A stretch of DNA of 58,493 bases, counting the filler, from Sanchytrium tribonematis (taxonomy: Eukaryota), in assembly GCA_018985235.1 (NCBI GenBank). It is 7 parts of 7 records of this genome, joined end to end, with 100 filler letters (N's around TTAATTAATTAA, not from the genome) between each part and the next. Parts side by side here need not be neighbours in the genome. Positions count along the whole stretch, not along the records: positions 16,872 to 25,193 come from JADGIG010000384.1; positions 25,294 to 33,567 come from JADGIG010000385.1; positions 33,668 to 41,901 come from JADGIG010000386.1; positions 42,002 to 50,229 come from JADGIG010000387.1; positions 50,330 to 58,493 come from JADGIG010000388.1; 2 more parts are not named here. One strand, given 5' to 3'. A program made the position numbers and the translations under genes. A model generated the notes under the pieces. That model had not been told where the DNA came from. It was given only the letters and a program-made list of their open reading frames with translations, and ran no database searches. Shown here piece after piece: positions 17,341 to 57,217 of this stretch (the first letter of the stretch is position 1; every line of letters begins with the position of its first letter).

Positions 17341-19408
17341 ATGACATGCGCTCAACTGTCACAAATTTTGAACTCGGAAGAATTTCCCAAGATAACCAAG
17401 CATGACAATTATTTAAGCGGTTATAAAGAAGCCTTTAAGTACCGCTTTGAGCAATTGATCAATTGGACAGACAAGTTTGAAAATGAAGGTGGATTGTTTA
17501 AAATGGCTGAAAGTGTGTATGGATTTAAGGTTCTACAGAACAAAATCTATTACAAAGAGTATGCCCCTAATCAAAATATTAAAGAAGCCTACTTGGTCGG
17601 GGAGTTTAATGAATGGAAAAAGACACATCCATTGGAAAAAAGAGAATTTGGAGCTTGGGATATATCATTGCCAAATAAGAACGGTCACCCAGTCATTCCA
17701 CACAATACCAAAGTCAAAATTTTGTTTATCCTAAATGACGGAAGTGAACTTTACCGCATGTCACCATATATCAAGTATGCTGTGCAAGACTTGAGCCAAA
17801 AAGTCGAATATGATGCTGTTTTCTGGAACCCATCGCAAAAGTATCAATTCAAACATAAGAGACCTGAAAAGCCAACTAGACCTAAGATTTACGAAGCCCA
17901 TGTCGGCATTTCGTCTCCTGATGGCAGAGTTGGAACATATAGAGAATTTACAGCAAATATTTTACCAAGAATTAAAAAATTAGGTTACAATATCATTCAA
18001 TTAATGGCGATTCAAGAACATGCATATTACGCATCTTTCGGTTATCAAGTGACCTCGTTTTACGCAGCTTCAAGTAGATACGGAACTCCAGAAGAGCTTA
18101 AAGAACTTATTGATGTTGCACATTCCATGGGACTCTATGTGTTATTAGACATTGTACATTCCCATGCATGTAATAACATTTCAGACGGTCTAAATTATTT
18201 TGATGGAACCGATCATTGTTATTTTCACGGTGGGCCCATGGGCAGACATGAATTATGGGATTCAAGATTATTTAACTATGGAAGCTACGAAACTTTGAGA
18301 TTTTTGTTGGGAAATATCAGATATTGGTTAGATGAATTCCAATTTGACGGATTCCGATTTGATGGAGTTACAAGCATGCTTTATAAGCATCACGGCATCG
18401 GTGCTGGGTTTAGTGGTCATTACGATGAATATTTTGGCCTTGATACTGACACTGATGCGATTTGTTATTTGACCCTGGCAAACTATTTGATTCACGAAAA
18501 TTATTCATATTGCCTCACGATTGCTGAGGACGTATCCGGAATGCCTGGATTATGTAGACCCGTAGAAGAAGGCGGTATGGGATTTGACTATCGATTGGCC
18601 ATGTCAATACCTGACATGTGGATAAAATTGTTGAAGCACAAGAGAGACGAAGAATGGGATTTGGGAAATATTGTACATACCTTGATTAATAGACGATATA
18701 AAGAAGGCTCAATTGCATATTGTGAATCTCACGATCAGGCATTGGTTGGAGACAAAACTCTTGCTTTTTGGCTTATGGACAAAGAAATGTACGATTTTAT
18801 GTCGGACATGTCCCCATTGACTCCCATTATTGATAGAGGAATTCAATTGCATAAAATGATACGACTTTTAACATTTAGTTTAGGAGGAGAAGGTTACTTG
18901 ACCTTTGAAGGCGTATTTATCACTAATTTAGAATGAATTTGGACATCCCGAGTGGCTAGATTTTCCAAGAGCCGGAAACAACAATTCATTTCACTATGCG
19001 CGAAGACAGTGGAATGTGGTAGACGACAACTTGCTAAGATACAAGTACTTGAATAATTTTGACCAAGCAATGATGCATCTTGATAAAAAATATCCTGTTT
19101 TAGGTGAATGGACATGGGTTAGCTTAAAGCATCAATCTGATATGGTCATTGCTTTCGAAAGAGGTGGACTCTTATTTATTTTCAATTTCAATGCAACTAA
19201 ATCATTCACTGATTATCGAATTGGAGTGGACACCCCAGGCACTTACAAATGTGTCTTGAACTCCGATAACAAAGAAATGTTTTTAGGGCATGGTCGAATT
19301 GATGAATCTTGTGAGTTTTCGACACACCCTGAAGAGTGGTGCGGTAGAAAAAATCACGTTTTGGTTTATATCCCTACTCGTACTGCCATTGTTTTGGCTA
19401 AGCAATAA
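17341..19408 (+). CDS. GLC3: 1,4-alpha-glucan (glycogen) branching enzyme, two exons (17341-18912, 18932-19408)
   Basis: [38 protein letters not shown] and [14 protein letters not shown]. Removing the 19-nt intron restores [19 protein letters not shown]. Confidence 0.97.
18913..18931 (+). other. 19-nt spliceosomal intron GTATTTATCACTAATTTAG
   Basis: Restores the conserved branching-enzyme motif [11 protein letters not shown]. Confidence 0.95.
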
Positions 19409-19421
19409 ATTTATTGTTGAC

Positions 19422-55500: not shown

Positions 55501-57217
55501 GGAAATGGAGAACAAAGCAAAGAAGTGTTGGAACGCACTTGTGACTTGTTTATGTATTTTATACAAAATGTAATTCATTTTTATTTAGTTTGACAAGATT
55601 ATATTCCAAAAAAGAACCAGATATTGTGCAGATATCTCTAAAATTGGATTTATTTGGTCTCATTGCATTTTTGACTCTATTAAAGATCATGCGCATTTAA
55701 TGCTATATTCCATGTTGAAAAGAAACTATTTATTATTTACTCAATTTGAAATGACTAGAATTCAAATGACTGTGGCATTATCGCAATTGCAAGATGATTT
55801 CTCAGATACTTTGGAAGCTTTAAAACAATTTAAAGACACAAATGGGAAATTTAATGAATCTACTTTGCAATTATTAAATCAATTGATTCAAGTAGTCAAA
55901 GATCAATGCGAAATGCAATTGATCACGGAGAAAGATCCGGAGTTGAAAGGGGATTTGTATGTCAAAATCATTAATGGTTATTCTAAAACACCAGATTTAA
56001 GAGTGGCTGTTTTAGAACAATTGGCTCAATATCACATCTCTAGAAATTACTTTCAAGAAGCAGCTATTTGCTATTTTCATTGCAGTGCGATCATCGGGGA
56101 ATATTTGACGCATTTCAATTTGCATTACGATCACACAAAGTTTCTAAAAACATGTCCATCCGTCGCAGAGGAACATCCCATTTGTGATCAACACGCACTA
56201 GAAACAGATCAAGTAGGGCAATCTGCTCAATTCTGTGAAAGAGGATTAATTAAATATTTGACAGAAGCAACGCATTGTATGCAAAAATCACAATTTTATG
56301 AAATATTGCCAGAAGGATACAAATTAATCATTCCACTTTATGAGCAGCAACTCAATTACACTGGATTATCCCAATTATATAAAAATATGGCAGATTCTTA
56401 CGATGCTTTAATCAAAATAGAAGCAACACATTCTCGAGTATTTGACACATTTTATAGAATAGCATTCTTTGGAAGTGGATTTAAGAAACTAGATGGGCAA
56501 CAATTTGTGTATAAAGAGAGATTAATCACGCAATTAAGTGAAATTTGTGAAAGAATGAAATTGACATTTGCTGATTTAAATCCTGAATTAATTCAAGATT
56601 CTAGACCTGTAGATGTGAAATCATTGAAACCTGGTCATTATATACAGATTTCTAATGTTAAACCACATAAAATTGGATCTCAATTTGATAAAAACTTTAA
56701 AATTGATAAATTCATTTTTAGTACGCCATTTACTAAAAATGGGAAAGCACATGGGACTGTAGATACACAATGTCTTCGTAAATTTATTGTGCATACAGAG
56801 AAACCATTTCCATATTTAACAAAACGAATTAAAATCTCTAAAATTGAAGATTTTGAATTGAGTCCAATTGAAGTCAGCATTGACAATTTAGAGGAAAGAT
56901 TAGTAGATATGAGATTGGTATTATGTAGAAATCCACCAGATATTAAAGAATTACAGCGTGTCTTGAGTGGCTCTGTGAGAGTGACTGTGAATTCTGGCCC
57001 ATTAGAAGTTTGTAGAGTATTTTTTAGTCAACGACAGCAATTTCCAGTTGATAAAATCCAACAATTAGAAAAGATATTCAGAGAATTCTTGAAATTGAGT
57101 GATGAAGCATTGACTTTGAATAAGAAATTAATTAAAGCGGATCAAATTGAGTTTCAAGAAGATTTGGAGCAGGGATTTGAAGAATTAAAGAAACAGATTC
57201 TAATATTGATGAAGTAA
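52546..57217 (+). CDS. DOCK-family Rho GEF (DOCK-C/D-like; C2/DHR-1 and DHR-2), two exons (..55569, 55589-57217)
   Basis: IQYHEKNPKFGD..IKLP..HHLRFSFYHVS. Then GYSKTPDLRV, FYRIAFFG, FIFSTPFTKNGKAHG, FPYLTKRI and LQRVLSGSV..VNSGPLEV. The start is approximate. Confidence 0.93.
55570..55588 (+). other. 19-nt intron GTAATTCATTTTTATTTAG
   Basis: Removal gives an open frame from 55589 running in phase into the 55700 ORF (111 nt = 37 codons, no stop). Confidence 0.92.

Follow-up and report, generated by a model that had tools for sequence, protein, structure and literature searches.

Uniform 19-nucleotide segments in genes of Sanchytrium tribonematis as probable spliceosomal introns

The DNA analysed here (58,493 nucleotides, nt, in all; the window) comes from Sanchytrium tribonematis, assembly GCA_018985235.1, and consists of seven pieces of about 8.3 kb each, joined by artificial N44-TTAATTAATTAA-N44 spacers. 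Sanchytrids are fast-evolving fungi which parasitize algae. Eight protein-coding genes of the window are each interrupted by a segment that begins with GT and ends with AG, and the nature of these segments is the subject of this work. An earlier note on the same DNA had listed them as introns of exactly 19 nt; all eight were confirmed with the coordinates and strands given there, spread over four of the seven pieces.

The exact register of the interruption could be fixed by alignment of homologues in two genes, in agreement with the restored protein motifs that the note had claimed. In the gene of the RNA polymerase I largest subunit (RPA1; from 30266 to the end of its piece, + strand) the segment lies at 33116-33134 in phase 0, between HCMAGR and EGLIDT, a motif which we take to be the polymerase bridge helix. 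The exon boundary corresponds to residues 1003/1004 of yeast A190, 1016/1017 of the S. pombe and 972/973 of the human homologue, the motif is contiguous in 91 of the 119 hits, and the codon is uninterrupted in the genomic open reading frames (ORFs) of Amoeboradix gromovi (P0247) and of the ENA protein P0248. In the glycogen-branching enzyme (GBE) gene (17341-19408, + strand) the segment lies at 18913-18931, also in phase 0; the junction motif is contiguous in 112 of the 120 hits, and the remaining 8 include the window itself with two relatives broken at the same codon, and one partial sequence. This site is also broken in A. gromovi P0122 and in ENA P0123.

The register was supported, less tightly, in five further genes by Pfam or PDB homologues or by relatives. 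The segment at 22307-22325 (+ strand, phase 0) interrupts a sanchytrid gene at 21056-22586, hereafter the 22307 gene, for which DUF3689 is a weak Atlas lead (0.91, 140 shared features); in both relatives, P0366 and P0367, the frame breaks off at this very codon, and exon 2 of the window gene is recovered when their tails are decoded. In the Vnx1-type cation exchanger gene (25652-27749, + strand) the segment at 27571-27589, in phase 2, is the sole frame-compatible GT/GC..AG of 10-60 nt, and the Na_Ca_ex profile aligns with positions 9-92 on exon 1 and 102-147 on exon 2. The segment of the Chs7 chitin-synthase chaperone gene (28806-29670, + strand) lies at 29620-29638 in phase 1; the Pfam Chs7 match (1-278 of 287) stops at the junction, exon 2 contributes 10 residues, and an alternative donor with the same motif, giving 34 nt, is also present. 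In the GDP-mannose transporter gene VRG4 (46856-45899, - strand; segment at 46182-46200, phase 2) exon 1 corresponds to residues 25-232 and exon 2 to residues 249-323 of PDB 9s35, and since the junction falls in a loop, homology does not pin the exact length. In the gene of a DOCK-family guanine nucleotide exchange factor (52546-57217, + strand; segment at 55570-55588, phase 0) the match of exon 2 to DOCK6 begins at its first residue (1453) and removal of 19 nt gives a single ORF of 1550 amino acids; the end of exon 1, searched against the PDB, had no significant match. The eighth segment, at 28089-28107 in phase 0, belongs to an SH3-domain gene on the - strand (28518-27780); the open frame of the SH3 exon starts right after the TAG of the segment, and the support here is the frame. 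Removal of the 19 nt left a stop-free ORF in all eight genes.

The eight segments follow a common pattern at every copy: G1 T2 A3 W4 T5, a spacer at positions 6-10 that is dissimilar among all eight, and Y11 T12 N13 A14 Y15 N16 T17 A18 G19. Per-position counts bore out the pattern given in the earlier note, with T5, T12, A14 (A at -6) and T17 invariant. Positions 11-15 form a branch-type element, YTNAY, of the yUnAy/CURAY kind in each segment. The donor has T at +5 in all eight, and the extended GTRAGT/GTATGT donor with G at +5 is absent. U12-type introns have an RTATCCTT donor and a TCCTTAAC branch site; no donor of this type was found among the eight.

In order to measure the enrichment, the motif was scanned at lengths of 14-60 on both strands against the expectation from 20 order-2 Markov simulations. 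There were 9 matches at 19 nt, where 0.1 were expected, and 0 or 1 at each other length. Since the motif was derived from the same introns, a motif-free ORF-rescue test was added, in which any GT..AG of 12-60 nt joining open frames of at least 150 and at least 40 codons was accepted in pieces 3-7. It returned 7 candidates at 19 nt, all with A at -6 (background 36%), and 0-3 candidates at each of the other 48 lengths (48 in total, 18 of them with A at -6). The Chs7 segment was missed by this filter because its exon 2 is too short.

The ninth 19-nt motif match (15970-15988, + strand, position weight matrix score 18.5) lies in a transposon-rich piece outside any recognisable coding sequence and joins just 28 and 13 codons; whether it is an intron is uncertain. 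Three candidates of other lengths were rejected. A 17-mer at 394-410 has a good score, yet it joins a fragment of a long terminal repeat (LTR) type RNase H to an unrelated ORF with a GDFN motif, presumably like that of the endonucleases of long interspersed nuclear elements; a 23-mer at 3615 and a 15-mer at 14351-14365 (- strand) join no long ORFs.

The eight introns occur in 23 modelled genes (0.24 per kb of coding sequence), one per intron-bearing gene, and are in phase 0 five times, in phase 1 once and in phase 2 twice. All eight lie in the 3' half of the coding sequence (0.57-0.96; scaled to the A. gromovi length, RPA1 is at about 0.61), for which the chance is 1 in 256 under uniform positions (1 in 128 two-sided). 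This runs counter to the 5' bias that intron-poor genomes usually have.

Six of the eight introns lie on contigs of the DNA run X1, at 104-133x and free of indels and joints; the run is possibly the window's own sample and is not an independent confirmation. One of these contigs carries another RPA1 allele. In the spliced frame the synonymous differences numbered 9 of 11 ahead of the intron and 7 of 8 behind it, counted on 19 of 22 rows, the three rows at 30781-30838 (a short bubble contig) being left out. Since the synonymous excess is found on both sides, both halves of RPA1 are under purifying selection, which argues against a pseudogene. In the second X1 segment there was no single-nucleotide polymorphism within the intron genes that it covers. 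The second allele, with 19 differences of which 16 are synonymous (32195-33485), and the small bubbles elsewhere (17120-17186) suggest heterozygosity or a mixed population.

By sequence comparison the window is from a sanchytrid fungus distinct from A. gromovi. Its proteins are 62-78% identical to those of A. gromovi; PWP2 has 62% identity to that species, 69% to one ENA protein and about 30% to other taxa, and the identity to other taxa is 40% for RPA1 and 66% or less for GBE. In a GBE tree, a single-gene tree with 24 rows picked from 120 hits plus P0241, the window grouped with A. gromovi and two ENA proteins (support 100/100), and this group was sister to Blastocladiomycota (Paraphysoderma, Sorochytrium; support 97/94). 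The features of Sanchytriomycota, namely a clade with Amoeboradix, a sister position to Blastocladiomycota and an AT-rich genome, were all found. The GC content of the window is about 34%, and the value published for S. tribonematis is 34.64% (Table 1 of PMC8371127). With its Chs7, GBE and chitin-binding GH16 genes, its standard genetic code and its place in the tree, the window was judged not to come from a nucleomorph, a ciliate or a microsporidian.

The orthologous introns of the relatives were decoded from the translated tails of truncated genomic ORFs, over all lengths and synonymous codings. As a control, the length of 19 was recovered in three of three window introns. For the 22307 gene the tail of P0367 decodes solely as 19 nt (score 39, equalled by 0 of 200 shuffles) and that of P0366 solely as 22 nt (score 32, 0 of 200 shuffles; shuffle maximum 29). 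The GBE tails read VFITNLE in the window, VF in A. gromovi and VFIKTHLE in P0123. P0125 and P0241 have no GBE intron at the window site and break eight codons later; the tail of P0123 is best decoded as 22 nt and that of P0241 as 19 nt. In each of the four decodable introns of the relatives the amino acids leave no choice but A at -6, and +5 is never G in five. No length could be read from the GBE tail of A. gromovi, VF-stop, since it is too short, and inspection by eye did not match the tail of the truncated RPA1 relative P0249 to an intron. In JGI metagenomes the GBE acceptor pattern had 0 matches, and a three-sequence PWP2 alignment brought up no relative when metagenome, viral and GTDB contigs were scanned with it.

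The contig tallies match within the pairs P0123/P0366 and P0125/P0367, and the two genes are adjacent in the window, which points to two organisms behind these tails, the former with 22/22 nt and the latter with 19/19 nt. The GBE and 22307 genes (17341-22586) seem to be adjacent in two environmental relatives also, which suggests that this gene order is conserved across 30-40% protein identity. In the GBE tree the earliest branch is that of the 19/19 organism, and A. gromovi and the 22/22 organism are sisters. Since the latter is thus nested among 19-nt lineages, parsimony suggests, from two introns per organism, that 19 nt would be ancestral and that one lineage gained three bases upstream of the branch A. 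On these decoded tails 'exactly 19' looks species-specific and not clade-wide. Intron sites are shared with relatives at 30-78% protein identity, and what appears to be new here is that the relatives would carry the same intron type at orthologous sites. Intron positions also turn over in the clade (the RPA1 intron is missing in P0247 and P0248, and the GBE intron of P0125 lies eight codons on), hinting at intron gain within a tiny-intron lineage.

Taken together, the eight segments are very likely U2-type spliceosomal introns, probably recognised as one compact unit with A14 as the predicted branch point, and we give this reading a probability of roughly 0.8. Several points weigh against it. 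The sample is eight introns in 58 kb of a genome of the 11-Mb class, and the excision, its efficiency and the branch nucleotide are all predictions from DNA. Seven of the eight sites allow other frame-compatible GT/GC..AG excisions of 10-60 nt, and the exact length is fixed by homology for RPA1 and GBE alone and by relatives for the 22307 gene. The introns of the relatives are read back from proteins and not from DNA reads, and the downstream scores of P0123 and P0241 are not significant (26 of 200 and 200 of 200 shuffles reach them), so that motif fit carries these two lengths. As to the splicing factors discussed below, U1-C also has no row in the A. gromovi annotation although it is present in the window, about half of the sanchytrid proteins were annotated according to the genome paper (PMC8371127), which makes absences weak, and Cyanidioschyzon merolae is described as having no Slu7 despite long distances from branch to 3' splice site.

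The alternative that survives best accepts real introns and does without a ruler: deletion bias would erode introns to a functional floor, as in nucleomorphs, and 19 would be the mode of a narrow range of 18-22 nt. Such a floor-plus-erosion model was put forward for Mikrocytos (section 7 of PMC10245619); a length of 22 nt exists in the clade, and eight introns are a small sample. We nevertheless consider it rather unlikely. There is not one motif match at 18, 20, 21 or 22 nt in the window, and PWP2, GBE and RPA1 have no insertions of 6-7 residues compared with relatives, so no in-frame introns are hidden there. The 22-nt relative is nested among 19-nt lineages and has 22 nt at both sites, which indicates lengthening, unlike erosion, though from n=2.

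A recent spread of one 19-nt mobile element, similar to introners, could also make the lengths equal, and it would agree with the missing RPA1 intron in both closer relatives examined and with the different GBE site of the earliest-branching relative, since positions turn over. Against such a common source, spacer positions 6-10 are unlike in all eight copies, two sites recur in relatives (in one case at a protein identity as low as 30%) and orthologous introns are unequal in length between lineages. We regard this origin as improbable.

It is still less probable that the 19-mers are kept in the mRNA and passed over by programmed bypass or a +1 frameshift, or are removed by a nuclease and ligase in place of the spliceosome. 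In favour of it, every decoded length (19 and 22) is 3n+1, and short microsporidian introns are reported to be poorly spliced, under 20% (PMC6349667). The segments have, however, a canonical GT start, a YAG end and an element of the yUnAy type, they occur in each of the three phases (5, 1 and 2), and the core spliceosome genes are present. A simple frameshift would also put 6 extra residues into the bridge-helix motif of RPA1.

That the segments are unspliced assembly or amplification errors, or frameshifts in dying genes, is barely credible and largely refuted: splicing is indeed deduced from DNA, sanchytrid genomes were obtained from amplified single sporangia (PMC8371127) and pieces 1-2 do contain degraded, frameshifted transposons, but the breaks share GT..AG and an internal motif, fall in essential single-copy genes, recur at the same sites in relatives at 30-78% protein identity, are flanked on both sides by a synonymous excess and show no indel in the X1 contigs.

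The spliceosome genes were also surveyed. The window encodes the U1 small nuclear ribonucleoprotein (snRNP) protein C (U1-C; 34134-34337, + strand) of 67 amino acids, with the zinc ligands C6, C9, H24 and H30 intact (Pfam zf-U1, E 7e-16). An Rfam scan of the window found no small nuclear RNA (snRNA), and one sub-threshold microRNA match. For A. gromovi the eggNOG sheet in the supplement of PMC8371127, with 3,755 rows, was used. It has rows for U1-70K, U2AF35, U2AF65, SF1/BBP, SF3B1, Prp5, Prp8, Prp17, Prp22, Prp40 and cactin, and U1-70K and Prp5 rows were found for both sanchytrids. For Slu7 and Prp18 no A. gromovi row was found among the 3,755 by name or by the KEGG or KOG ids which we take to be theirs. 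The earlier note had proposed an inventory of the U1, U2 and U6 snRNAs, U2AF, SF1 and SF3b for losses or altered pairing; U1-C, U1-70K, U2AF, SF1 and SF3B1 are all kept. A highly reduced spliceosome, from which the U1 snRNP and most accessory factors are lost, was not what we found, as of the factors looked up Slu7 and Prp18 alone were not found. Since the recognition factors are retained, the spliceosome is not stripped in the sense of Mikrocytos. Thus from the picture drawn in the earlier note, a fungus-like lineage with a length-measuring, streamlined spliceosome, the lineage stands, the length-setting machine gains support from the relatives (19/19 and 22/22), and the streamlining is partly supported at most, not being borne out for the recognition factors named there.

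In the proposed mechanism U1 on the donor GUAWU and U2 on the branch element YUNAY, separated by a spacer of 3-5 nt, would define the intron across a fixed span. U2 would bulge A14, the putative branch nucleotide, 14 bases from the start and 5 bases before the end, and the acceptor would be the first AG past the branch, always 5 nt on, with no pyrimidine tract and no scanning. With a lariat loop of 14 nt and a tail of 5 nt a pyrimidine tract would not fit in, and it is therefore probable that the intron is defined as a whole. Yeast is reported to complete the second step without Slu7, Prp18 and Prp22 if the branch lies less than 7 nt from the 3' splice site (PMC3392075); with the short branch-to-AG geometry Slu7 and Prp18 would be dispensable here, which agrees with the lack of rows for them in the Amoeboradix annotation. 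The 3' module (A at -6) is the same throughout the clade, and the donor-to-branch span appears to be fixed lineage by lineage, at 14 nt in the window and one relative and at 17 nt in another.

A stricter version of this mechanism, with a hard internal ruler that sets one intron length per species and moved from 19 nt up to 22 nt in a single lineage with the branch-to-AG distance fixed, is put forward tentatively, at rather less than even odds. Equally tentative is its corollary that all introns of that lineage may have grown together, each by three bases added between donor and branch, and the same caution applies to the idea of an otherwise largely complete fungal spliceosome that would have shed Slu7 and Prp18 alone, which act at the 3' splice site over long distances. 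If the ruler is true, comparison of U2, U6, Prp8 and SF3b between the 19-nt and 22-nt species would point to the length-measuring part.

The splitting of such genes by standard gene predictors, which had been anticipated, is seen in public data. EukProt holds exact read-through fragments of seven of the eight genes (GBE, RPA1, Vnx1, Chs7, VRG4, DOCK and the 22307 gene), together with orphan second exons of GBE and DOCK; a read-through of the SH3 gene, exon 2 of VRG4 and U1-C were not found there. Since the public proteins of these seven genes are truncated read-throughs, the introns are unannotated. The sanchytrid genome paper describes ORF calling by TransDecoder on genomic contigs (PMC8371127), and in the text of it that we covered 'intron' occurs once, within a reference title, and 'splic' not at all. 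With an intron in 8 of 23 modelled genes, many proteins in the public sanchytrid proteomes, which were made without intron prediction, would be truncated or split, and the gene counts and gene-loss claims for the phylum call for re-annotation. In rows 1135-1136 of supplement file 4 of PMC8371127, the SF1/BBP of A. gromovi appears as a pair of neighbouring ORFs on a single contig and is possibly split by an unannotated tiny intron.

Several other features were recorded in the window. Its first two pieces (1-16771) are rich in degraded mobile elements, with LTR-type reverse transcriptase and RNase H, gag-like fragments, a non-LTR type RNase H and a frameshifted DUF7869 element; a receptor-like leucine-rich repeat membrane protein, which has a stalk of Thr, Ser and Gly and a single transmembrane helix, is encoded at 8946-10217. 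In the region 36242-41901 a Helitron-like Rep gene (PF14214) adjoins a gene of a bacterial-type single-stranded DNA-binding protein, and an ORF of 516 amino acids with no Pfam match has an R-R-S-D-N-Y stretch that may, as an impression, be a divergent polymerase motif. At 42113-43432 a secreted-looking protein has three chitin-binding CBM18 repeats fused to a GH16 domain.

The sanchytrid introns share features with several known systems and coincide with none of them. The introns of Stentor coeruleus, as described in PMC9505925, are 15-16 nt long with a putative branch A at -6, and U1 and U2AF are retained. The similarities extend to the nearly single length, the GUA start, the AU-richness, the 5-nt tail after the A and mostly one intron per gene; the commonest Stentor intron, GUAAUUUUUAUAUAG, also has no G at +5, so this G is not obligatory for the U2 type. 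The differences are the length (19/22 nt here), the clearer YUNAY, the lineage (a fungus and not a ciliate) and the placement in the 3' half, where the same paper reports a 5' bias for Stentor and yeast. Mikrocytos mackini is likewise a parasite with uniform, sequence-conserved tiny introns, of 16-17 nt according to PMC10245619. That account gives it, as a rhizarian, 17-19 spliceosomal proteins with U2, U4 and U6 snRNAs found, and no introns in metabolic or transporter genes, whereas U1 proteins, U2AF and SF1 are kept in sanchytrids and introns occur in GBE and two transporters.

The introns of chlorarachniophyte nucleomorphs (18-21 nt; 19 nt for Bigelowiella) belong to the same size class in the accounts of PMC6009652 and PMC2483917, where their branch A is called 'not discernible' and about 3 introns per gene are given for a relict endosymbiont nucleus; the sanchytrid introns have a fixed A, a density of 0.24 per kb of coding sequence and a place in the main nucleus. 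Encephalitozoon cuniculi is a holomycotan parasite too, and its TAAYTT corresponds to the 3' end of three window introns (TAATTT-AG). Microsporidian introns are given in PMC6349667 and PMC2483917 as about 25 nt and variable (median 32), with a GTAAGT donor, a few dozen per genome and many 5'-biased, and Microsporidia form a separate lineage outside the Blastocladiomycota-Sanchytriomycota clade. In Yarrowia lipolytica, Trichomonas and Giardia the branch point also lies a few fixed bases from the AG with no pyrimidine tract, and the total length is free (median 204 nt in Yarrowia; PMC2483917), whereas here the donor-to-branch span would be fixed as well.

A search of the literature for sanchytrid introns or splicing and for 19-nt or shortest introns found no description within its coverage, which ended short of most subscription papers and part of the supplement of the genome paper, and the 19-nt introns are apparently unreported before. 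A 2026 paper on ultra-short introns of animals, in the part we covered, names ciliates, Microsporidia and dicyemids alone as earlier exceptions. All eight introns in the 58 kb have 19 nt and one relative decodes to 22 nt; the sanchytrid introns would belong with the tiny introns of fixed length, and those of 19 nt are probably the shortest in a fungus. Fixed-length introns under 20 nt are known so far from ciliates, mikrocytids and nucleomorphs; those of sanchytrids would have arisen separately within Fungi, below the size of the microsporidian introns of about 25 nt and in a lineage with a spliceosome comparable directly with the yeast structures, and the 19 and 22 nt of close relatives would be a natural experiment on what sets the minimal intron size.

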